DNA from: an uncultured Pelagibacteraceae bacterium
GTDB taxonomy: Bacteria > Pseudomonadota > Alphaproteobacteria > Pelagibacterales > Pelagibacteraceae
Direction: 5' to 3'
Length of the DNA: 64,000 bases
NCBI GenBank assembly: GCA_902520695.1
Contig: CABYOT010000006.1
Coordinates: forward strand, 5,996-69,995
Shown here: piece after piece, positions 3,483 to 62,281 of the stretch
Position numbering within the stretch: the first letter of the stretch is position 1
How the letters are laid out: the number at the start of each line of letters is the position of its first letter
Program-made: the position numbers and the translations under genes
The notes under the pieces: generated by a model
The model's database searches: none
Seen by the model: the letters and a program-made list of their open reading frames with translations, nothing else
Told to the model about the DNA's origin: nothing

Positions 3483-3821
3483 ATGGACAATAAAATTAAC
3501 GAATTAATCAACAATGAAATTAAAAGCAACGAAGTATGTTTGTTTATGAAAGGGACACCTGATGCTCCTCAGTGTGGGTTTTCTATGGCAGTTACAAACA
3601 TTTTAAAAATGCTTGAAGTTAATTTCAAAGGTGTAAATGTTTTAGCAGATCAAAACCTAAGAGAAGGTATTAAAGTTTTCAGTGATTGGCCAACAATTCC
3701 TCAATTATATGTTAAGAATGAGTTCATAGGTGGTTGTGATATAGTTAAGGAAATGTACGAAAGTGGTGAACTAGCCAAACTTTTTGAAGATAATGGAATT
3801 GAATTTAAAAAGAAAAACTAA
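3483..3821 (+). CDS. grxD: Monothiol glutaredoxin Grx4
   Basis: LFMKGT..PQCGFS, SDWPTIPQLY, GGCDI. Confidence 0.96.
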   Translation: MDNKINELINNEIKSNEVCLFMKGTPDAPQCGFSMAVTNILKMLEVNFKGVNVLADQNLREGIKVFSDWPTIPQLYVKNEFIGGCDIVKEMYESGELAKLFEDNGIEFKKKN

Positions 3822-3823
3822 TC

Positions 3824-14187: not shown

Positions 14188-14255
14188 TTGATATTTTTAT
14201 ATATTTGGGTATTAGTTTATTTAATTCACAATATATTTCTTAATAATACTTTTAA

Positions 14256-14921
14256 ATGACACAAAAATTTACCATTCTTTTTGATTTAGATGGAACGTTA
14301 ATAGATACTGCGCCAGATTTAATAAGAGCACATAATCATGTCATGAAAAAATTTGGCTATCCAACAAAGAAATTAGGTGAATTAAAAAATGCCGTTGGTA
14401 AAGGTGCAAAAGCAATGATGGCAAAAGCCAATGGACAATGGAAATGGTTTGATGAAAAAATTCAAAACGAAATGACAAATGAATTTTTATCTTACTACGG
14501 AAAAAATATTTTACTTGAAAGCAAGTTAATAAATGGAGTAAAGGAATTTCTAAATTGGTGTAAAAAAGAAAATATTTCTATGGCTGTATGCACTAACAAA
14601 ACTGAGCATTTGGCAGTTGATCTTTTAAAAAAAATTGGAATTTATGAATATTTTGAATATGTAGCTGGATACAATACTTTTGAATATTGCAAACCTGATC
14701 CTAGACATTTAACTACCACTATTGAAATTTTAGATGGTGATAAAAACAAAACAATCATGATTGGAGATAGTGAAACAGATGCAAATGCAGCCAAAGCTGC
14801 AGAAATTCCAATAATTTTGCTAAAATACGGATATACTGAAAAAAAATCAGATGAAATATATCACAATCACTTAATTAAAGATTTTGTAGGTATTGAGAAA
14901 ATTATAACTAAATATCTTTAA
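14256..14921 (+). CDS. gph: HAD-family phosphatase, phosphoglycolate phosphatase-like
   Basis: FDLDGTLIDTAPDL, CTNK, KPDP, MIGDSETD. Confidence 0.85.
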   Translation: MTQKFTILFDLDGTLIDTAPDLIRAHNHVMKKFGYPTKKLGELKNAVGKGAKAMMAKANGQWKWFDEKIQNEMTNEFLSYYGKNILLESKLINGVKEFLNWCKKENISMAVCTNKTEHLAVDLLKKIGIYEYFEYVAGYNTFEYCKPDPRHLTTTIEILDGDKNKTIMIGDSETDANAAKAAEIPIILLKYGYTEKKSDEIYHNHLIKDFVGIEKIITKYL

Positions 14922-14974
14922 TATTGATTAATTTATTTTAACTATTAAAACAAAATCATAAGCTAGGAGTTATT

Positions 14975-16477
14975 TTGTTGTTAAACACTGTTAAAGTATA
15001 CCCGTCAAAAATTAACCTTCCAAAGAAGAAACAGCTTGCGTGGAAAATAGCAGAAATAGCAAGTGATAATGCTAAGTTAAATAAAAACTCAATAGAGATG
15101 GCTATCAATAGAATAATTGATAATGCATCAGTTGCTATTGCCTCATTAAACAGAAAACCAGTTATATCTGCGAGAGAAATGGCCAAAGGTCATATAAGAA
15201 AATCAGGCTCAACATTATTTGGTATTAATTCAAAAATGAAATTTGATGCTGAGTGGGCAGCGTGGGCAAATGGAACTGCTGTTAGAGAATTAGATTTTCA
15301 TGATACTTTTTTGGCAGCTGATTATAGCCATCCAGGTGATAACATTCCTCCTATACTAGCTGTTGGTGAAAAGCTTCAAAAAAGTGGAGAAGACCTTCTA
15401 AGAGGAATTATTACAGCTTATGAAGTTCAAGTTAATTTAGTTAAAGGAATTTGTCTCCATAAACATAAAATAGATCATATTGCGCATTTAGGACCAAGTG
15501 TTGCTGCTGGAATTGGTTCAATGCTAAGATTAAATACTGAAACTATTTATCAAGCAGTTCAACAAGCGCTCCATGTTACTATTTCAACACGTCAATCTAG
15601 AAAAGGAGAAATATCAAGCTGGAAGGCATACGCACCAGCTCACGCAGGTAAATTAGCAATAGAGGCTGTTGATAGAGCAATGAGAGGCGAAGGTGCTCCT
15701 AGTCCAATTTACGAGGGAGAAGACAGTGTTATTGCAAGAATACTAGATGGAAAGAATGCAAAATATAATGTTCCATTGCCAAGAAAGAATGAGCCTAAAA
15801 AAGCTATTCTAGAGACATATACAAAAGAATATTCAGCAGAATACCAGGCTCAAGCACTTATAGATATTGGTAAAAAATTAAATAAGAGAATTCAAGATTT
15901 AAGAAGTATAAAAAAAATTGATATTTACACGAGCCATCACACACATTTTGTAATTGGAACAGGAGCAAATGATCCACAAAAAATGGATCCAAATGCCTCA
16001 AGAGAAACATTAGATCACTCAATTATGTATATATTTGCTGTCGCTTTAGAGGATGCTGATTGGCATCATGTAAAATCTTATACAAAAGCAAGAACGAATA
16101 GAAAAAGTACAATTAAATTATGGAAATCCATAACAACTCATGAAGATAAAAAATGGACAAAAAAATATCATCATCCTAATCCAAAAAAGAAATCATTCGG
16201 TGCAAGAATTGTTGTAACTTTTAATAGTGGTAAAAAGATAACTGAAGAATTAGAGATAGCAGACGCACATCCTTACGGTGCAAGACCTTTTAAAAGAAAA
16301 GACTATATTAAAAAATTTACAACATTGACTAAAAATATTATTTCCAAAAAAGAAAGTGATAGATTTTTGAAATCTGTTCAAAATTTAAGGAAATTAAAAA
16401 AAGGTAGTCTTGTTAGATTAAATGTTGAGGTAAGTAAAAAATATTTAAAAAATAATAATAAAAAAGGTATATTTTAA
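14975..16477 (+). CDS. prpD: 2-methylcitrate dehydratase (MmgE/PrpD)
   Basis: [43 protein letters not shown]; AGGAG RBS before a TTG start. Confidence 0.92.
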
Positions 16478-50143: not shown

Positions 50144-51184
50144 CTAATGATTTATCGATGAAGAAAAATTCCAAGAACAATCAAAACTTGGTATATAAAC
50201 TCTAGATAATTTAGTATTACCAAAGTTTTTATTAAATATATTTAACCAATTTTCTACTTGCTTTGGTTTTTTATCTTGGCTGCCGACCTGAGCTGTGATT
50301 ACACCTTTTGGCTTTAAAATTCTTGCAAGTGAATTCATATTTTTAGCAGCTAAATCAATACAGTATTGGTCATCATTTAAATCTACATATATCTGATCAT
50401 ATGTGTCATCTTTGACTGATTTAATGCTTTCAAAAGCATCTCCCCAAACACATTTTACTGAATTTTTCTCTGTCGCCTTCTCACCTATTTTGCCAAGATG
50501 CTTATCACATACTTCAACTACTTCAGGGTCTAACTCATACCAATCAATAAAACTAAAATTTTTTGATATGCATTCTCTTGCTACACCACCATCTCCACCG
50601 CCTATAATAGCTGCTTTTTCTTTTCTTGAATTTAATTCAAGTCCTGAATTTACAAAAGTAGAGCTATAAAGATATTCATCTTTTTCTGCTACTTGAATTT
50701 CATTATCTATAAACAAAGCTTTTCCAAATTGCTCTAATTCAAGAATCTCAATATGTTGGCCTACCTTTGACTTAAAATTTTCAAAAACATTATTAACTAC
50801 ATATGATTTTTTTAAACCAGGTGAACTATAATTGTCATGATAGAAATCTATTGTATCTCTACTAAATTCTTTTACAATAATTTGTGAATGTTCTATCTCA
50901 TCTTTAATAACATCTAAAGCAACAGAGGGAGAAATTTTCGCACATGTAAAAAAGTCAAAACTTATAATTCCCTTTTCTGGAAATGTATGAAAACTAATAT
51001 GACTTTCGGCCAACAATGCAACTAAAGTAAACCCTTGTGGCTCAAATTTATATTTAGTAATTTCAAGCACTGTAACCTTCGCTATTTTCGCAATTTTATA
51101 AACTAATTTCTCAAAGAAAACAGGATCGTATTCCTTTTTTGTGCCTATTATATCAAGCGTAATATGTTCTCCTACTTTAGTCAT
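50144..51184 (-). CDS. speD-speE: Fused S-adenosylmethionine decarboxylase (pyruvoyl) - spermidine synthase-like aminopropyltransferase
   Basis: N-terminal FEPQGFT..LLAESHISFHTFPE (E/S autocleavage site), DFFTC; C-terminal FGKALFID, IIGGGDGG, YELDPEV, GDAF. Confidence 0.9.
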   Translation of the reverse strand: MTKVGEHITLDIIGTKKEYDPVFFEKLVYKIAKIAKVTVLEITKYKFEPQGFTLVALLAESHISFHTFPEKGIISFDFFTCAKISPSVALDVIKDEIEHSQIIVKEFSRDTIDFYHDNYSSPGLKKSYVVNNVFENFKSKVGQHIEILELEQFGKALFIDNEIQVAEKDEYLYSSTFVNSGLELNSRKEKAAIIGGGDGGVARECISKNFSFIDWYELDPEVVEVCDKHLGKIGEKATEKNSVKCVWGDAFESIKSVKDDTYDQIYVDLNDDQYCIDLAAKNMNSLARILKPKGVITAQVGSQDKKPKQVENWLNIFNKNFGNTKLSRVYIPSFDCSWNFSSSINH

Positions 51185-51269: not shown

Positions 51270-53303
51270 TTGAAAAATAATTGGTCAAATACAGAAGCTA
51301 AAAAATATATATCAAAATACAAGAAACTGGGTCATTCTAGGGATATGGCGTTGAGAGTTTATACAACTAGATTACTAGGAAGAAATAGTAAATTGGTTTT
51401 ACATGGAGGTGGTAATACCTCTGTTAAAACTACCATAAAAGATTTAGATGGAAAAAACTATGATGTTTTGTGTGTAAAAGGTAGTGGATGGGATATGGCA
51501 GAAATCGAACCAGAAGGTTTGCCAGCTGTAAAACTAAATCCTCTTTTGGCATTAAAGAATAAAAAAAAATTATCAGATGAAGAAATGGTAGCATATCAAA
51601 AAAGGAATTTAATTAACATTAAATCTCCAAATCCGTCAGTTGAAACTTTTCTTCATGCTTTTTTACCATTTAAGTTTGTTGACCATACGCACTCTGATGC
51701 GATTATGAACGTCACTAACAGACCAAATGGTATTACTTTTTGCAAAAAGATATTTGGCAAAAAAGTAAGTATTATTCCTTATGTAATGCCAGGTTATGGA
51801 TTAGCTCAGAGGATTAAAGAGGTTTACTCAAAAAATCCAAATATAAACTGTCTTATTTTACTTAATCATGGAATTTTCACATTCTCTAACGATGCAAAAG
51901 AGTCATATGATCTAATGATCAAATATGTGAGTGATGCTGAAAAGGCTATAAAAAAATTAAAAAGAAAAAAGATCAAACAAATAAAAAATTTAAATACTAA
52001 AATTACTCCTGCTCAAATAGCACCAATACTTCGAGGACTAACTTCTAATGGTACAAATAAGAAATTTATTCTTACTTTTAGAAATAATAAAATATTGAGG
52101 TATTTTATTGATGGAAAAGAGGTGTCAAGATATTCTACTGAAGGAACCGCAACACCAGATCATGTAATAAGAGTTAAACCCTTTCCTTTAATTATAAAAC
52201 CTAAACCTAAATCCTCAATTAGTGAATTTGAAAAAACTGCAAAAAAAGCATTTATAAATTATAGGAAAAAATATTTGCAATATTTTGAACAAAATCAAAA
52301 AAAGGTGAAAGAAAAAAAGACAATGCTAGATACTTCGCCAAGAGTAATATTAGTACAAAATATTGGTATATTTTGTGTAGGTAACAGTCTTAAGGCTGCA
52401 AATATTGCAGTTGATTTGACAGAGACTAACGCAAGAGTAATTTCATCCGTTGAAGAAACCACTAAGTATAAATTTATAACAAAAAAAGATATTTTTGATG
52501 TTGAATATTGGTCTCTGGAACAAGCAAAATTGAAAAAAGAAAAAAAGGAATTAGAAGGAAGTATTGTTGTTATCACTGGTGCTTTTGGAGGAATAGGAAC
52601 AGCAACATATAAATTATTCAAAAAATATGGCGCAGAAGTAATTTTAATAGACAATAATAAAAAAAAGGTTGATGAAATGAGCAAGAAATTAAATGATCTT
52701 TGCATTTATTGCGATGTAACAAATAAAAAAAGTGTTAAAAATGCATTTAATTTAATTTCATCTCAATTTGGGGGGATAGATATTTTAATATCAAATGCGG
52801 GTACTGCTACAGGAGGTTCTATTGCTGAGGTAAGTGATAAAATTTTAAGAAAAAGTTTTGAAGATAACTTCTTTTCTCATCAATACTGTGCTTCTGAAGC
52901 TACAAGAATTATGAAACTTCAGAAAAATGAAGGATGTTTATTATTTAACATTTCCAAACAATCTGTAAACCCAGGTAAAAATTTTGGACCCTACGGTTTG
53001 CCAAAATCTGCATTATTAAATCTTTGTAAACAATATGCTGTTGATTACGGTTCTTACGGGATAAGATCTAATGGAGTGAATGCAGATAGAATTAGAACCG
53101 GACTCCTAAATGATAAAATGATAAAATCAAGAGCTAAAGCTAGAGATGTTACGACAGAAAATTATATGAAAGGTAATTTACTTTTAAATGAAGTTAAAGC
53201 CGAAGATGTAGCAAAAGCATTCTTTCATCTTTCAATTTCAAAAAAAACCACTGGAGCTATTTTAACAGTTGATGGAGGAAATATCGCTGCATCTTTAAGA
53301 TAA
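51270..53303 (+). CDS. Bifunctional class II aldolase - short-chain dehydrogenase (RhaEW/YuxG-like)
   Basis: GGGNTSVK, PSVETFLH, DHTH, LLNHG (Zn sites); TGAFGGIG, NAG, YGLPK, DGGN; GAGGA RBS. Confidence 0.92.
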   Translation: MKNNWSNTEAKKYISKYKKLGHSRDMALRVYTTRLLGRNSKLVLHGGGNTSVKTTIKDLDGKNYDVLCVKGSGWDMAEIEPEGLPAVKLNPLLALKNKKKLSDEEMVAYQKRNLINIKSPNPSVETFLHAFLPFKFVDHTHSDAIMNVTNRPNGITFCKKIFGKKVSIIPYVMPGYGLAQRIKEVYSKNPNINCLILLNHGIFTFSNDAKESYDLMIKYVSDAEKAIKKLKRKKIKQIKNLNTKITPAQIAPILRGLTSNGTNKKFILTFRNNKILRYFIDGKEVSRYSTEGTATPDHVIRVKPFPLIIKPKPKSSISEFEKTAKKAFINYRKKYLQYFEQNQKKVKEKKTMLDTSPRVILVQNIGIFCVGNSLKAANIAVDLTETNARVISSVEETTKYKFITKKDIFDVEYWSLEQAKLKKEKKELEGSIVVITGAFGGIGTATYKLFKKYGAEVILIDNNKKKVDEMSKKLNDLCIYCDVTNKKSVKNAFNLISSQFGGIDILISNAGTATGGSIAEVSDKILRKSFEDNFFSHQYCASEATRIMKLQKNEGCLLFNISKQSVNPGKNFGPYGLPKSALLNLCKQYAVDYGSYGIRSNGVNADRIRTGLLNDKMIKSRAKARDVTTENYMKGNLLLNEVKAEDVAKAFFHLSISKKTTGAILTVDGGNIAASLR

Positions 53304-53306
53304 TTT

Positions 53307-54092
53307 ATGCCTTTTTATCAACCAAATGAATTACCTAAATTAATGGTAGCTCCAAATGGAGCAAGAAAAGTCAAGAAAGATCATCCTGAAGTGCCCTTAA
53401 CCATCCAAGAAACTGTTGAAGTCGCAAAGAATTGTTTTAAAGCAGGAGCTGGTGCAATACATCTGCATGTCAGGAATGAAAAAGGAGAACACGTTCTTGA
53501 TGCAGGTTTGTATAAAGAAGCTTTAAAGGAATTAGAGTTTAAAGTTCCAAAAATGCATATCCAAGTTACAACAGAGGCAGTTGGAAAATATTCTCCAGAG
53601 GATATGAGAAAACTTGCTTATGATGTTACACCGCCTGGAACATCAATTGGTATAGCTGAGATGATACCCTCAAGAAATCCAACTGATGACGATGTTAAGT
53701 TATATAAATATTTGACAGAAGCTGGGACTAAAATACAACATCTTTTATATAATCCAAATGACATAGATTTATTAGTTAATTTATTGAACAAAGCTAAAAT
53801 TAATGTTGAGGGAGCTTGGTGTCTCTTTGTAATTGGACATTACTCAGGTAAAATTAGTTACCCAGAAAACATTCCAATATTTCTAGAAAAAATGAGAGAG
53901 AATAATATTAATTTAGACTGGGCAATATGTGCTTTTGCGAGAGAAGAAATATCCTGTCTAGAAAAAGCAATAAACTTAGGAGGCAAAATAAGAGTTGGAT
54001 TTGAAAATTCTTTGTATATGCCTAATGGTGAGATTGCACCAAATAACCATTCAAAGATAAAAGCAGTAAATGAAATCTTTAATTTAGCTTAA
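53307..54092 (+). CDS. Beta-keto acid cleavage enzyme family (BKACE/DUF849)
   Basis: VAPNGAR, HPEVPLT, HLHVR (HxH Zn site), RVGFEN. Confidence 0.88.
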   Translation: MPFYQPNELPKLMVAPNGARKVKKDHPEVPLTIQETVEVAKNCFKAGAGAIHLHVRNEKGEHVLDAGLYKEALKELEFKVPKMHIQVTTEAVGKYSPEDMRKLAYDVTPPGTSIGIAEMIPSRNPTDDDVKLYKYLTEAGTKIQHLLYNPNDIDLLVNLLNKAKINVEGAWCLFVIGHYSGKISYPENIPIFLEKMRENNINLDWAICAFAREEISCLEKAINLGGKIRVGFENSLYMPNGEIAPNNHSKIKAVNEIFNLA

Positions 54093-55544
54093 AAATGCAG
54101 AATATTTTTTAAAAAGAAAACTAACATCTTTATTTGATCTTGCTGAAGCTAAAATAAATCTATCAGGTCTTACTAAAATAGCTTTTGAATTAATATTTCT
54201 TAAATATTTTGATACATCGCTTAAATTATTTGCTTTAAATATGATGTAATTTTTTGAGTTTTTAGGCTTTATATCTGAAGATAAAATTATCATTCCTTTT
54301 TTTGAAAAATATTCATCTAGGGTTTTATTATTTTTAAGCTTGAATTGAGGAAAAATTTTTCCTCTATTTCTATCCTTTAGGTTACCTAGGCCTTTTCCTA
54401 GTTTAGGTTTAATTGACTGCATACTTTTAATACCTTTTTTATCAGATTTTATATTGTCTGTTATTTGAATAGACTCAACAGCATTTACAAATTCTCCCAT
54501 CCTCATAGTGGTTTCAATATATTCTTTAACATTTAGAGATCTTTCTGATTGATATGTGTTTAAAAGTGTTTCATCAAATTTATGTCTTATACAGTTAGCA
54601 ATTTTCCATGCCAAATTTGAAGCATCTCTAATCCCAGCACACATTCCTTGACCCATAAATGGTGGCATTAAATGAGCGGCATCACCTGCTATAAAAACTC
54701 TACCTTTTCGCCATTTTCTCGCAATAGCAGATTCAAATGTATAAATTGTTTTTCTCTCAATAATTGCCTCACTTTTATTTAGCCAAGGTTTTAGAAAATT
54801 CCAAATATAATTTTCTGATAACACTTTTTTATCACTATGTTTTTCCTTAATTGCAAATTCCCATCTTCTACGTCTGCCAACATTTCTACAATATGTTGCT
54901 GGTTGTTTTGGATTTGAATATTGAATTGTCCTATCTGGTAAATTATTTTTTTTCTTTTTTAAAATTAAATCAACTACTGCCCATTTTTGAGTAAAACCTA
55001 AATTATCCATTTTTGTTTTCATTTGTTTTCTAGTTATAGAGTTGGCGCCATCACAACCAATTACATATTTTGACCTTACGAGATACTCTTTGTGATTATT
55101 TAAATTTAAATAAGTTATATCGACATGATTTTTTGAATTTTTAATTTTTATTACTTCAGAATTTTGTTCTATTGAGACTTTTTTATAATTTTTTAATTTT
55201 TTTCTAAGTTTTTTTTCTAGGTCTGGTTGATGGAATCTATAACTTGGATACCATCCATTTTCTGTAATTTTTTTTGGTCTTGGCCAATCTAATATCACTT
55301 TATCCTTAGAATTAACGAATTTAGTGCCTTTATTAATTATAGTGTGTTTCAAAAATTCTTTTGTAATTCCTATTGTTTGAAATACTCTCATTATTTCGTC
55401 ATCAAAATGAACCGCTCTAGGTAGTGGATAAAAACTTTTTTCTCTATCAAGAATTAATATTGAAAAGTCATGCATTGCCAGAAGGTTTGCTAAAGTTCCT
55501 CCCGCAGGTCCTAATCCTACTATTGTGACATCAAATTTTTTCAT
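54084..55544 (-). CDS. Group A FAD-dependent phenolic monooxygenase (MhpA/OhpB-like)
   Basis: IVGLGPAG, PRAVHFDDE, FHQPDLE, GCDGANS, RWEF, AGDAAHLMPPFMGQGMCAGIRDA.NLAWK, LVRPDRFI. Confidence 0.9.
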   Translation of the reverse strand: MKKFDVTIVGLGPAGGTLANLLAMHDFSILILDREKSFYPLPRAVHFDDEIMRVFQTIGITKEFLKHTIINKGTKFVNSKDKVILDWPRPKKITENGWYPSYRFHQPDLEKKLRKKLKNYKKVSIEQNSEVIKIKNSKNHVDITYLNLNNHKEYLVRSKYVIGCDGANSITRKQMKTKMDNLGFTQKWAVVDLILKKKKNNLPDRTIQYSNPKQPATYCRNVGRRRRWEFAIKEKHSDKKVLSENYIWNFLKPWLNKSEAIIERKTIYTFESAIARKWRKGRVFIAGDAAHLMPPFMGQGMCAGIRDASNLAWKIANCIRHKFDETLLNTYQSERSLNVKEYIETTMRMGEFVNAVESIQITDNIKSDKKGIKSMQSIKPKLGKGLGNLKDRNRGKIFPQFKLKNNKTLDEYFSKKGMIILSSDIKPKNSKNYIIFKANNLSDVSKYLRNINSKAILVRPDRFILASARSNKDVSFLFKKYSAFLS

Positions 55545-55562
55545 TGATATTTTTAAAAATTA

Positions 55563-56531
55563 TTATTTTTTTAATTTTGAATATAACCAAGGACAATCAA
55601 TTAACAATGGAGCTTGTTTTCCTTGAGAAGCAGTTTCGAGTCTTTTATTTCTAAATTTCATTCTCTCATCATCAGGTAAATAAAGTCTCTCGTGCCCCCA
55701 GAAACTTGGCCCCTCAAATGTTTCAATTGGCTCCCATGTATCTGGATTAATAATCCTCCCACCCCATCCATTTTCAATAAAAAATCCTGAGGGTGTAATT
55801 GAGTAAAATGAAGTCATATAATCATTGGTATGCCGTCCCATTGTATATGCAATTGCATCATCCTTGTATTGTAATAAGTCATAACCTTGACCTACATCGT
55901 CTAAGTTATTGTATTCAACCATAAAATGATGGAAACCGGTTCTACCTGAACCAAATAAAGCTAAACTATGATGCCTACCATTAACATGAAAAAAGCATAA
56001 AGATATTGGAGTATGACTATAATCACTTATCTTGAAACCCATAATGTCTCTGTAAAAGGGAATTAAATCGTCGATATTTTTAACATGTACAACTGCATGC
56101 CCCATCCCTAGTGCCCCAGTCTTAAATCCTGAAATTGGTCTACCTGGTTTAAAAGGATCTGTGTCTAACATAGGCTTATACACTAATTCAATACGATTTC
56201 CTTGTGGGTCATTAAAATATATTAAATCCTCAACAAAACGTTTGTCAGCAAAAGAAGTCTTACCATGATTTACTACTATTTTATTTTCTTCTAATTTATT
56301 TGCAAAGGTTTGAAGATCTTCCTTAGTCTCAACTTCCCATCCTAAAAATCCTAATCCATCTCCTTTATCACCTGTTATTGTTAACCTTTGTTTTTGGTCA
56401 TCCATTCTAAAAGATAGAATTTCTTTTCCACGGTCTATCTGTTGCATACCGAGGTATTTTTGAGAATACTCTGACCAATCTTCAAATTTATCTGAATTAA
56501 CTCCAATATAACTTAAAGCTTTCACTGCCAT
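55563..56531 (-). CDS. Type I (VOC) Fe(II) extradiol ring-cleavage dioxygenase (BphC/DntD-like)
   Basis: LSYIG, RMDDQ, DPQGNRIE; metal and catalytic residues GMGH, RHHS, HHFMVE, GRHTND, SFY, TPSGFFIENG. Confidence 0.92.
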   Translation of the reverse strand: MAVKALSYIGVNSDKFEDWSEYSQKYLGMQQIDRGKEILSFRMDDQKQRLTITGDKGDGLGFLGWEVETKEDLQTFANKLEENKIVVNHGKTSFADKRFVEDLIYFNDPQGNRIELVYKPMLDTDPFKPGRPISGFKTGALGMGHAVVHVKNIDDLIPFYRDIMGFKISDYSHTPISLCFFHVNGRHHSLALFGSGRTGFHHFMVEYNNLDDVGQGYDLLQYKDDAIAYTMGRHTNDYMTSFYSITPSGFFIENGWGGRIINPDTWEPIETFEGPSFWGHERLYLPDDERMKFRNKRLETASQGKQAPLLIDCPWLYSKLKK

Positions 56532-56556
56532 TTTATTATTATACTTAATTTTGAAA

Positions 56557-56582
56557 GAGCCCGCTATGAAATTAGCGGGCTC
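56557..56582 (-). terminator. GC-rich stem-loop after the aromatic-cluster dctP
   Basis: GAGCCCGCTA/TAGCGGGCTC 10-bp stem with a 6-nt loop, followed by only TTTC on the minus strand. Confidence 0.7.
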
Positions 56583-56593
56583 GAATTTAATTA

Positions 56594-57607
56594 TTAACCG
56601 TCTATTTTAGAAATTACTTCTCTTGCTCTTTTTAATACAGCATCTCCATCAAGACCTTTGCCTTTCATTTCTGCTAACCAGTCTGATTCGATTGGAGCTA
56701 ATATTTTTTTATATTCAGCTAAAACAGAGTCTGATGCAACAGTTATTTCGTGTCCTGGAGTGTTTTCTACTTGAACTCTCATCTTGGCATTCTGAGTATC
56801 AATTAAATTAGATGCCCAATCGCCAAACCATTGACCTGAATGTTTATCAACACAACCTTTAGCTGCTGAAGAAAGACCGTTATATTTCCCTTCATTCATT
56901 ATTAATCCAAAAGTAGCATTAGTGATGTTAACTTCTGTATGGTATTTAGTAACATCAAATAATCTAAATGAACCAATTGCTGTGTATGGGAAAGGCGTTC
57001 CATCAATAACACCTTTATTTAAGGCTTCTGAAGTTCCTGGTGCTGGTACTTTAACCCCAGTTGCTCCTAAAGTTTTAAGAATAGTTCCAGCTATTTTGCT
57101 TGGAACTCTCATTTTTTTTCCTTTAAAGTCTGCAGGCTTAACTACTTTTGTATCTTTCATATGGATTTGGTATCCAGGATTTGAATGAAGTCCTATTAGC
57201 TTAATTCCTGCCATTTCTTTATCAAGGTAACCTTCTTCAAAAAGAGTATTTAAAGCTCTAGATCCAGCTTTTGAAGTTTTGGTCAAGAATGGCAGTTCTA
57301 CAACTGAACTTAAAGGAAATTGACCACCAATATATCCAAGAACTGTCCAAGATATATCTGCAACTCCTGAAGTTACTATATCGTATTGTTTGGGAGGACT
57401 TCCTAGCACTCCTCCTGCATACATTTTTACGTTTAAAGCACCATTTGAACATTTATTAACTTTATCTGCCCAAGCGGCTAAAATCTTACTTGCTATAAAT
57501 GCTTTTGGTGGTTCAAAAGTTGCTAACTTTAATTCTGTAGCTGATGCTGTACTAATAATGCTTAAGGAAAAAATTCCTATAACAAAACCAATTATTTTTT
57601 TTTTCAT
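56594..57607 (-). CDS. dctP: TRAP substrate-binding protein DctP (candidate aromatic acid/phenolic binding)
   Basis: Signal peptide, YAGGVLG, FPLSSVVELPF, KMRVP, EALNKGVIDG; GAGGGG RBS. Confidence 0.9.
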   Translation of the reverse strand: MKKKIIGFVIGIFSLSIISTASATELKLATFEPPKAFIASKILAAWADKVNKCSNGALNVKMYAGGVLGSPPKQYDIVTSGVADISWTVLGYIGGQFPLSSVVELPFLTKTSKAGSRALNTLFEEGYLDKEMAGIKLIGLHSNPGYQIHMKDTKVVKPADFKGKKMRVPSKIAGTILKTLGATGVKVPAPGTSEALNKGVIDGTPFPYTAIGSFRLFDVTKYHTEVNITNATFGLIMNEGKYNGLSSAAKGCVDKHSGQWFGDWASNLIDTQNAKMRVQVENTPGHEITVASDSVLAEYKKILAPIESDWLAEMKGKGLDGDAVLKRAREVISKIDG

Positions 57608-57658
57608 ATTAATCCCCTCTTAATTATTAAATAATTATTAGAAAGTTTAACTTGAAAA

Positions 57659-58510
57659 TTAGATTATTTCATCCTTAATTGTATTAGATAAAGTGCCAAT
57701 TTCTGTGATTTCTATTTCAACATTATCTCCAGGCTTCATGAATATTGGAGGATTTCTTTTAAACCCTACACCTCCAGGCGTACCAGTGACTAATACATCC
57801 CCAGCTCTCCAAGCCATAGCTTTAGAAACATACGAAATTAAAATTGGAATATCGAAAATAAGTTGACTTAATTTTGCGTTTTGCATGACTTCACCATTTA
57901 ATCTTGTTTCAATTGTTAAATTTTTATAATCATTAATGTCTTCAGCTAAAACCATATGTGGACCAAAACTCCCTGTTTTTTCAAAGTTTTTACCCATCCC
58001 AAATTGTCTAGTATGTCGCTGCCACTCTCTTACAGTGCTTTCATTATAACATGAATAACCAATTATATGCTTTAAGGCATCCTCAGGTTTTATGTGTTTG
58101 CCACCTTCATCCATAATTACTGCCATCTCACCTTCAAAATCTAAACTTTGTGAAACAACAGGTCTTTGAATCGGCTGTAAGTGTGCAGTTTGACTTTCTG
58201 GAAATCGATGAAAAATTACCGGGTTCTCTTCAACTGTTCTGTTGGTTTCTTTAACATGTTCACTATAATTTAAACCAACACAAATAATTTTTCCAGGATT
58301 TGGAATTAATGGCAAATATTCAATATCTGAATCATTAATATTGCCTGGATTATTTGTTGCATAGGATTTTGCTTCTTCAATTCCTTGGTTTTGAATTAAA
58401 TCTTTAAGCGTATTAGAATTAGATACTTTTCCAGTTAGATCTGTAATTTTATTATTATTTATAATACCGAACTTATTTTGTTTATTATGTTTAAAAGAAA
58501 TAAACTTCAT
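57659..58510 (-). CDS. Fumarylacetoacetate hydrolase family protein
   Basis: KIICVGLNY..H, LDFEGE, GYSCYNE, GKNF, FGP, VTGTPGGVG. Confidence 0.93.
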   Translation of the reverse strand: MKFISFKHNKQNKFGIINNNKITDLTGKVSNSNTLKDLIQNQGIEEAKSYATNNPGNINDSDIEYLPLIPNPGKIICVGLNYSEHVKETNRTVEENPVIFHRFPESQTAHLQPIQRPVVSQSLDFEGEMAVIMDEGGKHIKPEDALKHIIGYSCYNESTVREWQRHTRQFGMGKNFEKTGSFGPHMVLAEDINDYKNLTIETRLNGEVMQNAKLSQLIFDIPILISYVSKAMAWRAGDVLVTGTPGGVGFKRNPPIFMKPGDNVEIEITEIGTLSNTIKDEII

Positions 58511-58528
58511 GATTAATACTTTCTATTT

Positions 58529-58570
58529 TTGAAACTACTTATATGTTAATGTTTAAATAATTTGAAGCAA
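58529..58570. promoter_or_regulatory. Overlapping divergent promoters of the aromatic cluster
   Basis: Plus strand TTGAAA-17-TTTAAA (58529-58557); minus strand TTGCTT-16-TAACAT (58570-58543). Confidence 0.4.
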
Positions 58571-58577
58571 CATTTTT

Positions 58578-59069
58578 ATGATTTCTAAAGTCAGTAAAGT
58601 TTTTGATTATTCAGCGATAGCTTCAGGTATTGTTTTGTTTTTATTAGCTGTATTAACTTTTTGTGATGTATTTGGAAGAAGGTTTTTAAATTCACCAGTT
58701 ACAGGCACAATAGAGTTAGTTGAAATAGGAATGGCATTAGTAGCTTTCCTTGCAATGCCGAGAGCGTTTTATTTAAATGCAAATGTTTCAGCAGATTTTA
58801 TAAATAATTTAAATTTGGGTACATTTAAAACCTATTTGGTAATTTTAAAATTTTTTTTAATGATATCGATTATGTCCTTAATGGCATACTCTACTACTTT
58901 GACATCATACAAATTTATGAACAATCAAAGAGTAACGATTGATCTAGAGCTTTATTTTTATCCTTTTTATTTTATATGCTCAATTGGGATGTGGTTAAGT
59001 GTTTTTGCTATAATCATATGGTTTATCAAAACTATTTTTATAATTAATTCAAAAGCTGAGAATTTGTAA
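58578..59069 (+). CDS. dctQ: TRAP transporter small permease DctQ
   Basis: TFCDVFGRRFLNSPVTGTIELVE motif; 4 TM helices. Confidence 0.9.
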   Translation: MISKVSKVFDYSAIASGIVLFLLAVLTFCDVFGRRFLNSPVTGTIELVEIGMALVAFLAMPRAFYLNANVSADFINNLNLGTFKTYLVILKFFLMISIMSLMAYSTTLTSYKFMNNQRVTIDLELYFYPFYFICSIGMWLSVFAIIIWFIKTIFIINSKAENL

Positions 59070-60379
59070 TGGGATTAGAGGCTGTGATTAATGGTGGATT
59101 GTCTTTTGCTGCTGTATTGATTTTGATGGTATTAAACGTACCAATAGGAATTGCAATGTTGGTTGTTGGTTTTACTGGCTTTGCAATGATTTCAGGATTT
59201 GACCCTGCAATATTTGTTTTGGGAACTGCTCCTTTTGATGCTGTCTCAAAATATACATTATCAGTGTTGCCTTTATTTGTTCTAATGGGAAATCTTGCCA
59301 ACAGTTCAAATTTATCAAGAAATTTATACGATGCAGCTTATGCAATAGTTGGCCATTACAAAGGTGGTTTAGCGATGTCTACTGTAGGCGCATGCGCTGG
59401 ATTTGGAATGATTTGTGGATCATCGATTGCAACAGCTGCAACAATGTCTCAAATGGCAGGCCCTGAAATGAGAAGACATGGTTACAGTGATGCCCTAATA
59501 AGCGGATCTATTGCATCTGGTGGAACGCTTGGAATCATAATTCCTCCGAGTGTAATTTTAGTAATATATGCTTATTTAACAGAACAGTCTGTTCAAGAAT
59601 TATTTTTTGCTGCACTAATACCAGGAATAATAGCAGTGGTACTGTATATGATTGCTATTAGGATTTATCTTTTAATTTATCCCTCACAAGGTGGTTATGG
59701 AACAAAAATGCCTTTGAAGGAAAGAATTTCTGCATTATCAAAAGTTTTTCCAATTTTTTTAATATTTGCAATCATGATGGGTGGACTTTATTTAGGTTTT
59801 TTTACAGCAACAGAAAGTGCTGCAGTAGGTGTAATTTTAGTTTTAATTTTTATTTTTTTTAGAGGTCAATTAAAATTAAGTTTATTGAAAGATGCTTTAT
59901 GGGCCACTATAAAAACTGTTGGTTCTTTATATTTAATTGTTATTGGTGCAAGTATATTTAACTATCTTATAACTGTCACACAATTACCTTTTGCGGTTGT
60001 TGATTTTATAAATTATCTTGAGCTTACTCCATTAGGAATAATTTTAGTAATTTGTGCAATTTATTTAGTTCTTGGCACTGTAATGGACTCTTTGGCAATG
60101 TTATTTTTAACTATTCCAGTTTTTTACCCAGTAATTATTGATGCTGGAATTGATCCTGTTTGGTTTGGTATATTTGCAGTAATAGTTGTTGAATTTGGAT
60201 TGATTTCACCTCCTGTTGGAATGAATTTATTCGTTATCAAAGGTGTAATGCAAAAAACACCTTTGCAAACTATATGGTTTGGCACTCTTCCATTCTTAAT
60301 GACTGACGTAATTAGGCTTGCTTTAATTATTGCTTTTCCTGCAATTTGTTTATATTTGCCTAGTCTGATGGCTCACTAG
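59069..60379 (+). CDS. dctM: TRAP transporter large permease DctM
   Basis: LPLFVLMG, ICGSSIAT, SGGTLGIIIPPS, ISPPVGMN. Confidence 0.95.
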   Translation: MGLEAVINGGLSFAAVLILMVLNVPIGIAMLVVGFTGFAMISGFDPAIFVLGTAPFDAVSKYTLSVLPLFVLMGNLANSSNLSRNLYDAAYAIVGHYKGGLAMSTVGACAGFGMICGSSIATAATMSQMAGPEMRRHGYSDALISGSIASGGTLGIIIPPSVILVIYAYLTEQSVQELFFAALIPGIIAVVLYMIAIRIYLLIYPSQGGYGTKMPLKERISALSKVFPIFLIFAIMMGGLYLGFFTATESAAVGVILVLIFIFFRGQLKLSLLKDALWATIKTVGSLYLIVIGASIFNYLITVTQLPFAVVDFINYLELTPLGIILVICAIYLVLGTVMDSLAMLFLTIPVFYPVIIDAGIDPVWFGIFAVIVVEFGLISPPVGMNLFVIKGVMQKTPLQTIWFGTLPFLMTDVIRLALIIAFPAICLYLPSLMAH

Positions 60380-60698
60380 TATCTTTTATTTTTTTTATAT
60401 AATTAAAATAAATTAAGCCAAAAACTGCACCTACAATCATTAAAATATATTGATAAAATTTTAATAATACAAACACTATTGGTAATTCTTTACCTGGATT
60501 CCGAGCATAAAAATTATCTGTACCATCTTTATATAAATCCATTGGACCTAAAGTTGCATATAAACCAAAGATAAATATATAAATACAGGGCAATAAAGAA
60601 ATAATTAATAAAATTCTATTTCCGCGAATTAATTTTATTAAATTTGCAGATACTCCTACTGAAACTAGACAAATTAGCGACAATATTAAAGGGTTCAT
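60360..60698 (-). CDS. Hypothetical membrane protein
   Basis: Three hydrophobic segments; TAATG coupling to the sulfatase stop codon. Confidence 0.6.
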   Translation of the reverse strand: MNPLILSLICLVSVGVSANLIKLIRGNRILLIISLLPCIYIFIFGLYATLGPMDLYKDGTDNFYARNPGKELPIVFVLLKFYQYILMIVGAVFGLIYFNYIKKIKDTSEPSD

Positions 60699-62281
60699 TA
60701 CCAAACTCCTATCATAATTCCATCATCTTTTGTATAATCTCTTTCTTTTAAAACAAATTCATCTGTTGCTGCAACCCTATTTTTTCTATTTGTAATTCTT
60801 TGAAGCAATATATCCTTCATTTCATCAATAATTTTTTTATGATCTGATGATTGTCCTAAATCATTGAATTCATCTGGATCATTTTTTAAATCAAATAATT
60901 GAGGTGGGAAACCTTTGTAATAAATATACTTCCATCTATCATTTCTTATCATATATGCTCTTGCATCTGATGCTCCAATATTAAGAATTTTTCTTGCTTC
61001 ATTAAATGAATAATCTATTTCACTAAACACACTGTTTTTCCAATTAGGGACTTTATTTCCTCTTATAATTGGTAGCAATGATTGACCCTCAAGACGATGT
61101 TTACTTACTTTACTATCTACAAAGTCTAAAAAAGTTGGAAGCAGATCAATAGCCTCTACAAATATTTTTTCTCTTACTCCCCTATTATTATCTGACAAAT
61201 TACTTGGATCATAAATTATCATTGGAACTTTAACAATTTGTTCATGAAAAAGCTCTTTTTCTCCTAGCCAATGATCGCCCTGATAGTCACCATGATCTGA
61301 TGTAAAAACTATCATTGTATTCTTCATATAATTTTTTTCTTCAAGAAAATTAAATAGTCTCCCAAGATTATCATCTATTTGTTTTATCAATCCCATGTAT
61401 CCTGAAAGAACAGTGTTTCTCACTTCTTCTCTTGAAAAAGTCTTTGAAATATTATTTTCCATGAAAGCTTTGTAGACTGGATGATCTATTTCTTTTTCAG
61501 CATTACTTCGATGAACTGGGTAAAATTGATTTGAGGAGTACATATTATGATAAGGTGCAGGAGCAATGTATGGCCAATGAGGTTTAATATATGATAAATG
61601 TAAAAACCAAGGCTTTTCTCCACTTTCCTGAATAAACTCCATTGATCTATTTGTCATAAATGCAGTTTCGGAATGTTCTTCTTTAACTCTTGCTGGTTTA
61701 TTTGAATTTCTTAACCTCCATCCACTCAAAATATTTCCACTTTCATCCTCTGATGAATTTGCCCAACTATCCCAAGGATTATCACCCTCATATCCAAGTT
61801 TATTTAGCCACTCATTGAAAGATAATTTTTTGTTTGAGTTTTTAATATGGTTATTTGGGTGAAGACCATCATCTCTTTCATAAGGCTCAAAACCTGGTTC
61901 ACTAACCGTCAAACCAATTTCTGTATCTTTTGAAATTCCAAGTCTATTCATTCCATCTGTATCGGGTCTCATATGTGTTTTGCCTACAACACCAGTCCTA
62001 ATTCCAGATTGCCTTAAATAATCTCCAATTGTTAGTTCACCGATTGGCAAAGGTATTTGGTTCCAAGTTGATCCATGACTAAATACTGTTCTTCCAGTAT
62101 AATAGGACGCTCTTGATGGGCCACAAACAGGGGCTTGGACATAAGCAGACTCAAACAAAACTCCTTTTTTTGCTAAACCGTCTATGTGAGGTGTTTTAAG
62201 GTGTGGATGACCATAACAAGAAAGATAATCAAATCTTAGTTGATCAGCCATTATAAATAAAATATTTTTAACTTTATTCAT
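60698..62281 (-). CDS. Formylglycine-type sulfatase/phosphonate monoester hydrolase family, cytoplasmic (arylsulfatase-like)
   Basis: NILFIMADQLR, CGPSR (CxPxR signature), GKTH, KPHWPY, SDHGD, EKE; no signal peptide. Confidence 0.9.
   Translation of the reverse strand: MNKVKNILFIMADQLRFDYLSCYGHPHLKTPHIDGLAKKGVLFESAYVQAPVCGPSRASYYTGRTVFSHGSTWNQIPLPIGELTIGDYLRQSGIRTGVVGKTHMRPDTDGMNRLGISKDTEIGLTVSEPGFEPYERDDGLHPNNHIKNSNKKLSFNEWLNKLGYEGDNPWDSWANSSEDESGNILSGWRLRNSNKPARVKEEHSETAFMTNRSMEFIQESGEKPWFLHLSYIKPHWPYIAPAPYHNMYSSNQFYPVHRSNAEKEIDHPVYKAFMENNISKTFSREEVRNTVLSGYMGLIKQIDDNLGRLFNFLEEKNYMKNTMIVFTSDHGDYQGDHWLGEKELFHEQIVKVPMIIYDPSNLSDNNRGVREKIFVEAIDLLPTFLDFVDSKVSKHRLEGQSLLPIIRGNKVPNWKNSVFSEIDYSFNEARKILNIGASDARAYMIRNDRWKYIYYKGFPPQLFDLKNDPDEFNDLGQSSDHKKIIDEMKDILLQRITNRKNRVAATDEFVLKERDYTKDDGIMIGVW

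Follow-up and report, generated by a model that had tools for sequence, protein, structure and literature searches.

The window, a 64-kb stretch of a Pelagibacteraceae contig (64,000 nucleotides), contains an accessory island of approximately 11 kb at 51270-62281, the core of which is formed by six genes, those of the monooxygenase, dioxygenase, DctP, FAH-family enzyme, DctQ and DctM listed here together with their surroundings.

51270..53303, plus strand: class II aldolase-SDR fusion, the left-hand island gene (NF006192, 893 bits)
53307..54092, plus strand: beta-keto acid cleavage enzyme (BKACE), 261 aa, a probable downstream step (PF05853)
54084..55544, minus strand: class A FAD monooxygenase (MO) of the MhpA-like subfamily, 486 aa, the proposed ring hydroxylase (PF01494; NF004829)
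55563..56531, minus strand: type I BphC-like two-domain extradiol dioxygenase (EDO), 322 aa (PF22632 and PF00903; TIGR03213)
56557..56582, no strand: GC-rich palindromic hairpin of 10 bp in the dctP-dioxygenase intergenic region (terminator-like scan)
56594..57607, minus strand: TRAP solute-binding protein DctP of the TarP-like aromatic-carboxylate clade (PF03480)
57659..58510, minus strand: FAH-family enzyme, BbdG/HcdC-like, 283 aa, the proposed ring-fission polyketo acid C-C hydrolase (PF01557)
58578..59069, plus strand: TRAP small permease DctQ (PF04290)
59069..60379, plus strand: TRAP large permease DctM (PF06808; TIGR00786, 297 bits, cut-off 268)
60698..62281, minus strand: cytoplasmic Cys-type sulfatase / phosphonate-monoester-hydrolase-like enzyme (PF00884)

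All six core ORFs are intact, their coordinates are exactly those of an initial annotation of this DNA, and Pfam and NCBIfam profiles confirmed the family of each. The dctQ gene diverges from the FAH gene across a spacer of 67 bp, the BKACE gene is convergent with the monooxygenase gene, and no regulator gene was found within the cluster, as had been noted initially. The hairpin may act in partial termination or in mRNA stabilisation favouring the binding protein. Among the 80 Pelagibacteraceae loci fetched, the order Sulfatase-DctMQ-FAH-DctP-EDO-MO-BKACE was constant wherever the contig reached, and BKACE adjoined the module in every SAR11 locus that was long enough, in both genomic contexts. 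The aldolase-SDR fusion, which with BKACE and the sulfatase makes up the island beyond its core, occurred in the island of its own lineage only; it was missing in the L072-type island and was not found in five closed SAR11 genomes. The island was present in 30 of the 401 Pelagibacterales genomes sampled, and it is an accessory element of a minority of SAR11 and no general SAR11 trait. The system is already in the literature as SAR11 island Dct-3: a 2025 pangenome paper described it under this name as a TRAP paralog with dctP split from dctQM in opposite orientation, and with dioxygenase, BKACE, FAH and sulfatases present (PMC11796062). The island is a real variant of a pathway type already known, with studied relatives.

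The monooxygenase scored 505 bits against the NCBIfam model NF004829 'MhpA-like subfamily' (cut-off 390), remained below the cut-off of every MhpA equivalog model among the NCBIfam profiles, and contains both the GxGxxG and the GDAAH motif. Its identity to E. coli MhpA is 28% and confined to the FAD domain. Full-length identity is 40-57% to the same-module hydroxylases of a Paraburkholderia plasmid, a Martelella plasmid and the marine MAG L102, and the hydroxylases across module variants form one subfamily with 35-57% full-length identity. The dioxygenase matched TIGR03213 with 253 bits, under the cut-off of 366. As judged from the alignment to BphC 1HAN its catalytic residues are intact, since the iron triad H145/H202/E253 is kept together with H188, H234, D237 and Y243, which bears out the full His/His/Glu triad and catalytic His/Tyr of the initial annotation. 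Orthologues are 54-67% identical across the full length and the C-terminal tail of about 40 aa is conserved, whereas true BphC proteins are at most 38% identical and lack the tail.

The FAH-family protein (205 bits against PF01557) is encoded by the sole gene of its family in its own genome, which is 91% complete. Its identity to BbdG of Aminobacter pBAM2 is 48% over the full length, and to a Phaeobacter plasmid FAH 52%. On plasmids of Phaeobacter, Paraburkholderia and Variovorax, FAHs with a VOC dioxygenase and an MhpA-like hydroxylase as neighbours are 46-52% identical to the SAR11 protein, and the same range holds for those of Rhodococcus and R. leguminosarum, each beside a VOC protein. By its sequence relationships the enzyme belongs to those FAHs whose genes neighbour MhpA-like hydroxylase and VOC dioxygenase genes. 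The H85-x-x-E88 pair, E126/E128, K174 and TGTPGGVG are conserved, and the SAR11 FAH carries Glu at D157, the position of the metal-ligand Asp in relatives.

The combination of hydroxylase, extradiol dioxygenase and FAH is found again in other Alphaproteobacteria, accompanied by TRAP, MFS or TTT transporters and usually also by an IclR regulator. Clusters of the dioxygenase, the hydroxylase and an FAH of the same type were seen on plasmids of Martelella, Rhizobium, Pannonibacter and Roseinatronobacter, on L100, a contig of 492 kb, and in an abundant alphaproteobacterial MAG of marine origin. A Bacteroidota MAG and one 7-Mb assembly have a 325-aa FAH of different type in the same position, and the EDO-MO pair occurs without a nearby FAH in Hoeflea and L099. 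Near the module in two taxa are NAD(P)H-quinone oxidoreductase genes, which would suit auto-oxidising trihydroxy intermediates. In Roseinatronobacter a distant BKACE, 21% identical to the SAR11 one, is also found beside the module. The gene arrangement is non-random, because the order is kept across SAR11 loci and the enzyme triad recurs in unrelated taxa, and the initial proposal of a conserved functional module made up of the three enzymes is supported. Seawater metatranscriptome assemblies contained as much as 30% of the 31-mers of the cluster.

The top 19 structure and sequence matches of DctP were TarP proteins and the marine-metagenome 'aromatic acid' binder 5I5P, the structure of which is titled 'specific for aromatic acid ligands'; ligands in the matched TarP proteins are coumarate, cinnamate, caffeate, ferulate and 4-hydroxyphenylacetate. 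R167, the canonical carboxylate-binding Arg, is invariant among orthologues and shared with the TarP-type proteins and 5I5P/5I7I/5IGA/5IZZ, the best matches. The exact ligand is not transferable to SAR11 DctP because its identity to these structures is only about 30%. Its identity to the sister-module DctP of L102 is 37-38%, and the latter protein is approximately 72% identical to 5I5P, by eye from the alignment (503 bits, 318 residues). A hydroxy-aromatic acid, one of the substrate classes suggested initially, fits this TarP-like protein. The other suggestion, a neutral substrate of the resorcinol or phloroglucinol type, would be an unlikely one for transport, because DctP retains the Arg that binds carboxylates and is similar to binders of aromatic acids.

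Downstream genes of two classical routes were searched for in the own assembly of 1.27 Mb, 91% complete, on which all whole-genome absences given here are based. No mhpB, mhpD or mhpF and no genuine MhpC or MhpE was found there; the best MhpC-like match, a PcaD-like hydrolase, has an amino-acid racemase gene of the cysteate racemase-like kind as its neighbour, and the best MhpE-like matches are ORFs of 529-533 aa. The models for HPPD (TIGR01263) and homogentisate dioxygenase HmgA (TIGR01015) had no match, nor was a PF01144 CoA-transferase for acetoacetate found in the search. For this genome neither the ordinary route of 3-hydroxyphenylpropionate nor that of homogentisate holds up, because mhpB/D/F, real MhpC/E, a second FAH-family gene, HPPD and HmgA are all absent. 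The absence of MhpC/D/E/F, initially reported for the window, holds there and across the assembly, and no mhpCDEF-like genes elsewhere complete an ordinary mhp route.

The nearest analogue of the SAR11 module is Hcd/Bbd. In Pseudomonas mandelii 7HK4, hcdABC encodes a FAD hydroxylase, a type I dioxygenase and a 31.2-kDa FAH-family protein for the catabolism of 3-(2,4-dihydroxyphenyl)propionate and 7-hydroxycoumarin, in which 3-(2,4-dihydroxyphenyl)propionate is converted to a 2,3,5-trihydroxy acid and further to 2,4-dihydroxy-6-oxonona-2,4-dienedioate (PMC6222606). HcdC was active only on the cleavage product of the trihydroxy ring and inactive on ordinary catechol cleavage products (PMC6222606). 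The island likewise combines a class A FAD hydroxylase, a type I extradiol dioxygenase and an FAH-family protein of about 31 kDa, with no alpha/beta hydrolase, and protein sizes and gene content suggest orthology to the Hcd proteins. Plasmid clusters of hcd architecture (small VOC, FAH, MhpA-like hydroxylase, MFS or TTT, IclR) have FAHs 47-48% and hydroxylases 35-40% identical to those of SAR11. HcdB is apparently a small VOC enzyme of about 20 kDa, and Hcd-like clusters use such small enzymes (~185 aa) and Bbd a BbdF-like VOC type (~285 aa), whereas the SAR11 enzyme is BphC-like with 322 aa and a C-terminal tail. Unlike hcd, the island relies on TRAP uptake, includes BKACE and a sulfatase, and lacks a regulator. 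The second system is the 2,6-dichlorobenzoate lower pathway on pBAM2 of Aminobacter sp. MSH1, a plasmid whose general role is described in PMC8460812. Here too a TRAP transporter (BbdB1-3), a ring-cleaving VOC-fold dioxygenase (BbdF) and a 283-aa FAH (BbdG) are encoded in one cluster, bbdG overlapping bbdF by 4 bp. Raes et al. 2019 reportedly proposed that BbdF converts trihydroxybenzoate to 2,4,6-trioxoheptanedioate and that an FAH step by BbdG, whose role is only proposed, follows. BbdF is, however, only 21% identical to the SAR11 dioxygenase and BbdB1 only 24% identical to SAR11 DctP, and pBAM2 hydroxylates by a Rieske oxygenase with dechlorinating GSTs where SAR11 uses a flavin hydroxylase. 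DntB/DntD/DntG and the orcinol route share the chemical logic, in which a trihydroxy ring is opened by an extradiol enzyme to a 2,4-dihydroxy-6-oxo acid and an FAH-type step follows; the 2,4-dinitrotoluene and orcinol substrates are neutral, whereas the SAR11 transporter points to a carboxylate. E. coli mhpABCDFE shares a hydroxylase of the wider MhpA-like family and two similar first reactions (ortho-hydroxylation and extradiol cleavage), but MhpB is LigB-type with no homologue here and MhpC/D/E/F have no counterparts in the genome.

Most likely, on somewhat better than even terms, the island imports a hydroxylated aromatic acid, hydroxylates it, cleaves the ring and yields pyruvate and a keto acid. 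The TarP-like TRAP transporter would import an aromatic carboxylate that already bears two oxygens on the ring, placed as in resorcinol or hydroquinone, such as dihydroxyphenyl-propionate, -acetate or -benzoate, and the MhpA-subfamily hydroxylase would form a 2,3,5-trihydroxyphenyl-type (hydroxyquinol-type) acid. The BphC-like Fe(II) dioxygenase would then cleave the ring beside the side chain to a 2,4-dihydroxy-6-oxo-dienoate, the enol form of a 2,4,6-triketo acid. Beta-diketones are substrates of FAH-fold hydrolases, and the BbdG/HcdC-type FAH would cut a C-C bond of this one, probably giving pyruvate and a 3-keto acid. BKACE may turn the latter and acetyl-CoA into acetoacetate and acyl-CoA. 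The observation of the initial annotation is confirmed and its interpretation partly supported: its sequence of trihydroxy ring, polyketo acid and FAH hydrolysis matches hcdABC and BbdF/BbdG, and its 'minimal three-enzyme' pathway is probably too narrow, because BKACE is linked to the module in each of the two SAR11 contexts. Counted against the proposal are the BphC-like type of the dioxygenase, unlike the small or BbdF-like VOC enzymes of Hcd-like and Bbd clusters, the hydroxylase family name and dioxygenase class that would suit a plain monohydroxy route equally, the FAH-less EDO-MO relatives, the BKACE identity of only 21%, the lack of PF01144 and the Glu for Asp.

Unlikely is a truncated ordinary route, in which a monohydroxy acid (3-hydroxyphenylpropionate, 3-hydroxycinnamate or similar) would be converted to the 2,3-dihydroxy acid as by MhpA. 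Its later steps, just as unlikely, would be BphC-/HppB-type ring cleavage, with the FAH-fold enzyme replacing MhpC/MhpD or the product being excreted or cross-fed. PGAP-style naming and NF004829 put the hydroxylase in the MhpA-like family and the dioxygenase falls in the BphC/HsaC/NahC group of cleavers of 3-substituted catechols, so that family name and class equally suit a plain 3-hydroxyphenyl to 2,3-dihydroxyphenyl sequence; TarP relatives bind monohydroxy phenylpropanoids and 4-hydroxyphenylacetate, and the EDO-MO pair stands alone in some relatives. The low MhpA identity with all equivalog cut-offs missed, the beta-diketone chemistry of FAH-fold hydrolases, the single FAH gene and the hydratase, aldolase and acetaldehyde dehydrogenase not found in the genome count against this route, and HcdC left the cleavage product of 2,3-dihydroxyphenylpropionate untouched (PMC6222606). 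Highly improbable is the published reading of Dct-3 as an importer of 4-hydroxyphenylpyruvate, with breakdown of this acid to fumarate and acetoacetate by a homogentisate-type route with a dioxygenase, a hydrolase, BKACE and fumarylacetoacetate hydrolase (PMC11796062). The island described there matches the present one, HPPD shares the VOC fold and an HPPD-like gene adjoins the module in one distant locus, L100. The dioxygenase, however, scores as a BphC-type extradiol enzyme without HPPD match, the genome has neither HPPD nor homogentisate dioxygenase, the FAH is of the BbdG/YisK-like type and no true fumarylacetoacetase, and the flavin hydroxylase would be left without a role. Detoxification, with the module clearing toxic phenolics or quinones without its products serving as a significant carbon source, is quite improbable; the island is accessory and without regulator and its relatives are accompanied by quinone reductase and GST genes, but deliberate uptake is indicated by the dedicated high-affinity TRAP importer, and the FAH step would give central metabolites.

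The sulfatase is part of the island and its connection to the pathway is uncertain. Distinctly unlikely is a variant of the preferred pathway in which a sulfated phenolic acid derived from aryl sulfates of algae or seagrass is imported by the TRAP transporter and unmasked by the cytoplasmic sulfatase before hydroxylase, dioxygenase and FAH act. The enzyme has a CGPSR motif and no signal peptide, its best NCBIfam matches are PehA and arylsulfatase types, both under cut-off, it is the only sulfatase of its genome, and it accompanies the module in the two SAR11 contexts alike. Three other taxa also have sulfatase genes no more than 10 kb from the module. Two of these three are, however, the 7-Mb assembly and the Bacteroidota MAG, and such genomes tend to be sulfatase-rich, while the Martelella sulfatase belongs to a sugar ABC/LacI unit. 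The L072 lineage has a ROK kinase between sulfatase and dctM, which suggests a sulfated sugar, and no FGE gene was found in the search of the own genome. Phosphonate monoesters are a further substrate class of PehA-type enzymes, an activity in keeping with a role in phosphorus scavenging.

The open reading frames at 54084-60379 were recovered with exactly the coordinates and gene types of the initial annotation, and, as stated there, no regulator lies inside the cluster. They belong to an insert spanning 51270-62281 with the following features:

51270-53303, class II aldolase-SDR fusion (NF006192, 893 bits); leftmost island gene, separated from the BKACE gene downstream by 3 bp
53307-54092 (+), BKACE
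54084-55544 (-), class A FAD monooxygenase/hydroxylase (MO)
55563-56531 (-), type I extradiol dioxygenase (EDO)
56594-57607 (-), TRAP binding protein DctP
57659-58510 (-), FAH-family enzyme (FAH)
58578-59069 (+), DctQ
59069-60379 (+), DctM
60698-62281, sulfatase

In three closed SAR11 genomes without the dioxygenase, about 0.6 kb separates mtnA from the gene found at 50144-51184 in the window, and hence the window has 11 kb inserted at this spot. The start of the sulfatase gene and the stop of mtnA overlap by one base (62281). The G+C content of the window is about 30%, and its host assembly (1.27 Mb, 28 contigs, the window being on contig C6) is 91% complete. All loci nearest to the window's cluster come from Pelagibacteraceae single-cell genomes, and the order sulfatase-DctM-DctQ / FAH-DctP-EDO-MO / BKACE is conserved as far as the contigs extend in all 80 Pelagibacteraceae loci fetched. 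In a second SAR11 lineage, represented by locus L072, the order is sulfatase-ROK kinase-DctMQ-FAH-DctP-EDO-MO-BKACE; its particular features, at 3245-4153 and 11543-15765, are a ROK-family kinase between sulfatase and dctM and a urease operon that the island abuts in place of mtnA. Sulfatase and BKACE thus accompany the six genes from monooxygenase to dctM in two genomic contexts, and the "three enzymes" originally proposed are probably too narrow a description. The aldolase-SDR fusion is missing from the L072-type island, was not found in five closed SAR11 genomes and occurs in just one island version. On a Phaeobacter plasmid, a class II aldolase and an alcohol dehydrogenase are encoded near the VOC-FAH-hydroxylase cluster.

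The SAR11 cluster is an accessory island. The dioxygenase was present in 30 of the 401 Pelagibacterales genomes sampled (18/215 of the high-quality ones), with carriers confined to two of 13 genera, and in none of the single-contig Pelagibacterales genomes listed. It was found in 0/400 other Alphaproteobacteria genomes sampled at E ≤ 1e-80, a search scoring at most five candidates per genome that shows only the rarity of the module. Island proteins are common in marine metagenomes, in clusters of up to 2355 member sequences, and up to 30% of the cluster's 31-mers were found in seawater metatranscriptome assemblies. The island is Dct-3, a published TRAP paralog on a SAR11 genomic island in which dctP is apart from dctQM and faces the opposite way, with dioxygenase, hydrolase, BKACE, fumarylacetoacetate hydrolase and sulfatases as neighbours (PMC11796062, Microbiome 2025); it is thus not new to the literature. 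Both this island and the Hcd/Bbd systems of other bacteria were already known and had been missed in the initial annotation. Locus L069 is from a SAG-MED single-cell genome, a name suggesting the same Mediterranean data set as that of PMC11796062.

The dioxygenase has two VOC domains, PF22632 (BphC_D1) at residues 6-53 and PF00903 (Glyoxalase) at 143-253, and is a type I (VOC-fold) extradiol dioxygenase of the BphC/HsaC-like group. Alignment to BphC (1HAN) bore out the intact active site first annotated: the iron triad H145/H202/E253 and the catalytic residues H188, H234, D237 and Y243 are kept, and triad and catalytic residues are invariant across 14 orthologues. These orthologues are 54-67% identical over the full length, C-terminal tail included, whereas annotated BphC proteins are at most 38% identical to the dioxygenase and lack the tail. 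The match to the biphenyl-2,3-diol 1,2-dioxygenase equivalog TIGR03213 (253 bits) is under the cut-off of 366, and by sequence the orthologue group is well apart from true BphC proteins. The C-terminal extension of the subfamily, absent from BphC, comprises about 40 aa (residues about 283-322) with invariant Arg residues and an invariant C-P-W-L motif (C313-L316).

The monooxygenase carries the GxGxxG and GDAAH motifs and passes the broader MhpA-like subfamily model NF004829 (505 bits, cut-off 390), but is far under every cut-off of the MhpA equivalogs NF004827/28/30/31; with E. coli MhpA it shares 28% identity across 350 residues, all in the FAD domain. FAH (PF01557, FAA_hydrolase, 205 bits) falls in a 283-aa BbdG/HcdC-like group, is 48% identical to BbdG and conserves the His-x-x-Glu pair H85/E88, the ligands E126/E128, K174 and TGTPGGVG. 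The third metal ligand is E157 (NES) in both SAR11 lineages as against Asp (ND) in 12/12 compared relatives. Scores were under the cut-offs for the HpaG/HpcE isomerase-decarboxylase TIGR02303 (154 against 276) and the L-2,4-diketo-3-deoxyrhamnonate hydrolase NF053535 (153 against 500). It is the sole FAH-family gene in the genome (91% complete assembly), and it is not a true fumarylacetoacetase.

Most loci with an orthologue of the dioxygenase have a hydroxylase of matching type beside it, as listed in the table. The hydroxylase of the Pannonibacter cluster (33% identical to the SAR11 enzyme) and that of the Roseinatronobacter cluster (29%) are more remote paralogues. Three plasmid sets hold FAH homologues at 46-52% identity beside an MhpA-like hydroxylase and a VOC dioxygenase that is of a different class. 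Over their full length, the hydroxylases of these variants share 35-57% identity with the SAR11 enzyme.

Table. Gene arrangement of the cassette and its variants in other bacteria
Martelella: TRAP QMP-EDO-MO-FAH, then a gene annotated as DNA-binding transcriptional regulator
Rhizobium: FAH-EDO-MO-regulator; quinone reductase nearby
Pannonibacter: TRAP QMP-EDO-FAH; hydroxylase close by
Roseinatronobacter: BKACE, TRAP, EDO-FAH-MO, quinone reductase, GST
L100 (492-kb contig): EDO-MO-FAH-IclR
L102 (abundant marine alphaproteobacterial MAG): DctPQM / EDO-MO-second VOC-FAH
Bacteroidota MAG and a 7-Mb assembly: different 325-aa FAH type, then EDO-MO-MFS
Phaeobacter plasmid: 283-aa VOC-FAH-MO
Paraburkholderia plasmid: 188-aa VOC / FAH-MO-MFS, with IclR
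Variovorax plasmid: 185-aa VOC-MO-IclR-FAH, with TTT binding protein
Rhodococcus plasmid: FAH with 181-aa VOC protein
R. leguminosarum plasmid: FAH between unannotated 283-aa (BbdF-like by blast) and 551-aa ORFs
Aminobacter pBAM2: BbdF-BbdG pair, with TRAP system BbdB1-3

Together these loci suggest one cassette across taxa, with orthologous hydroxylase and FAH, a ring-cleaving VOC enzyme drawn from three interchangeable classes and a varying transporter. Many soil and marine bacteria carry it, often misleadingly annotated ("3-hydroxyphenylpropionate hydroxylase", "VOC family protein", "HpcE"), and a single substrate assignment would correct many of these annotations. The second, BbdF-like VOC class of about 285 aa (L102:8772-9614; L107:11138-12004; L108:7135-7986, the last two being further loci) shows 61% identity within this set of three and only about 21% to the 322-aa dioxygenase, and pairs directly with the FAH gene. 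The L102 cluster holds both dioxygenase classes.

DctP (PF03480), with the carboxylate-binding Arg R167 invariant, is by sequence and model a probable TarP-like aromatic-acid TRAP binding protein. Its AlphaFold model (mean pLDDT 73, pTM 0.79) gave aromatic-acid complexes as all of its best 19 Foldseek matches. Model and sequence match best TarP proteins solved with coumarate, cinnamate, caffeate, ferulate or 4-hydroxyphenylacetate, the ligands being those stated in the PDB entry titles, and also a marine-metagenome binder titled "specific for aromatic acid ligands". Identity to these structures is only about 30% (37-38% to the L102 DctP), so that the ligand class alone can be transferred. The neutral resorcinol or phloroglucinol suggested initially is probably wrong as substrate, since DctP keeps the carboxylate-binding Arg and its nearest relatives bind aromatic acids. 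The DctP of the sister module in the L102 MAG (L102:5028-6062) is about 72% identical (503 bits) to 5I5P/5I7I/5IGA/5IZZ, which places this orphan structure in the genomic context of a DctPQM / EDO-hydroxylase-VOC-FAH cluster.

The ordinary mhp route was rejected on the basis of family searches and of tblastn of the E. coli Mhp proteins over the whole genome (91% complete). The initial annotation had named mhpCDEF-like genes elsewhere as refuting its proposal, and the proposal withstands this check. With these queries MhpB, MhpD and MhpF had no match in the assembly and MhpC and MhpE only weak unrelated ones, namely a PcaD-like hydrolase beside a gene with a sub-cut-off match to cysteate racemase (an amino-acid racemase) and ORFs of 529-533 aa, respectively; TIGR03343 and TIGR03217 were below cut-off in the genome. 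The published interpretation of Dct-3 is uptake of 4-hydroxyphenylpyruvate and its breakdown to fumarate and acetoacetate (PMC11796062). This homogentisate route was also rejected: neither HPPD (TIGR01263) nor homogentisate 1,2-dioxygenase (HmgA, TIGR01015) had a match in the genome, the dioxygenase itself does not match HPPD and is BphC-type, and the FAH is not of the type required. The present reading of the island is biochemically better than the published one (PMC11796062). A compact pathway of hydroxylase, extradiol dioxygenase and FAH acting on a polyhydroxylated ring is supported by intact catalytic residues, by recurrence of the cassette and by the Hcd/Bbd precedents. From the initial interpretation, this pathway and the failure of the genome (91% complete assembly) to complete an mhp route stand, but probably not the restriction to three enzymes or the neutral phenols.

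Raes et al. in 2019 reportedly found that BbdF cleaves a trihydroxybenzoate to 2,4,6-trioxoheptanedioate, which BbdG was reportedly proposed to take to central metabolites. The genes of the Bbd proteins are on pBAM2, which is documented as a plasmid for 2,6-dichlorobenzoate catabolism and carries a TRAP system (PMC8460812). In Pseudomonas mandelii, hcdABC encode a flavin hydroxylase, a type I extradiol dioxygenase and a 31.2-kDa FAH-family protein that convert 3-(2,4-dihydroxyphenyl)propionate to 3-(2,3,5-trihydroxyphenyl)propionate and on to 2,4-dihydroxy-6-oxonona-2,4-dienedioate, which is then consumed; ring-fission products derived from ordinary catechols were not substrates of HcdC (PMC6222606). 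Compared by description with that system (PMC6222606), the SAR11 island has the same three gene types clustered and likewise no alpha/beta-hydrolase step. The reported Hcd sizes (62, 31 and 20 kDa) would fit the small-VOC variant of Paraburkholderia.

FAH-fold hydrolases cut beta-diketones. For extradiol cleavage to yield a 2,4-diketo acid, the catechol must carry a further hydroxyl, para to the hydroxyl-bearing carbon that is cut (the future carboxylate); such a catechol is a hydroxyquinol-type ring. The most economical reading would then be import of an aromatic carboxylate with two ring oxygens, hydroxylation to a 2,3,5-trihydroxyphenyl acid, ring cleavage next to the side chain, hydrolysis of the product to pyruvate and R-CO-CH2-COOH, and delivery of this 3-keto acid to further metabolism. 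The side chain would set the 3-keto acid: 3-oxoadipate from propionate, 3-oxoglutarate from acetate and oxaloacetate from benzoate. The trihydroxy intermediates would auto-oxidise, which fits with the quinone reductase genes near two relatives. BKACE acts on 3-keto acids as a substrate class, and a cut to pyruvate would therefore explain why BKACE travels along. The cross-phylum support for this link is weak, as the Roseinatronobacter BKACE is only 21% identical to that of SAR11. No PF01144 CoA-transferase for acetoacetate activation was found. FAH could equally well cut the product to a dicarboxylate and acetylpyruvate, as the Hcd authors suggested (PMC6222606). A second BKACE gene with a stronger family match (305 bits) occurs elsewhere in the genome (G000:C5:21532-22392, G000 being the window's own assembly).

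The sulfatase (PF00884, 177 bits; CGPSR motif, C-x-P-x-R) is PehA/arylsulfatase-like, is cytoplasmic, has no signal peptide and is the only one of the genome; no formylglycine-generating enzyme (FGE, PF03781) was found in the assembly. Unmasking of a sulfated phenolic acid is a possible role for it, made less certain by its PehA-like affinities, by the ROK kinase adjoining it in L072 and by the placement of the Martelella sulfatase in a sugar-transport context. Across taxa, the link of the sulfatase to the module is weak. A self-contained route of six steps, undemonstrated and on balance unlikely, would join both accessory enzymes to the cassette: TRAP import of a (free or sulfated) phenolic acid of the resorcinol or hydroquinone type, cytoplasmic desulfation, flavin hydroxylation, extradiol cleavage, FAH hydrolysis to pyruvate and a 3-keto acid, and direct hand-over of the latter to BKACE (for example, 3-oxoadipate + acetyl-CoA to acetoacetate + succinyl-CoA). 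If true, some SAR11 populations would be fully able to use algal or plant polyphenol fragments, and the FAH-BKACE coupling would be new.

SAR11, the most abundant heterotroph of the surface ocean, is generally portrayed as living on small labile compounds. An O2-dependent ring-cleavage module in about 7-8% of the sampled SAR11 genomes would mean that some of these bacteria take part in turning over polyphenol-derived DOM. Within the 62 bp that separate dctP from the dioxygenase gene is a perfect 10-bp GC-rich palindrome (56557-56582; 7 G-C pairs, 6-nt loop), which may lead to higher expression of DctP relative to the downstream enzymes.
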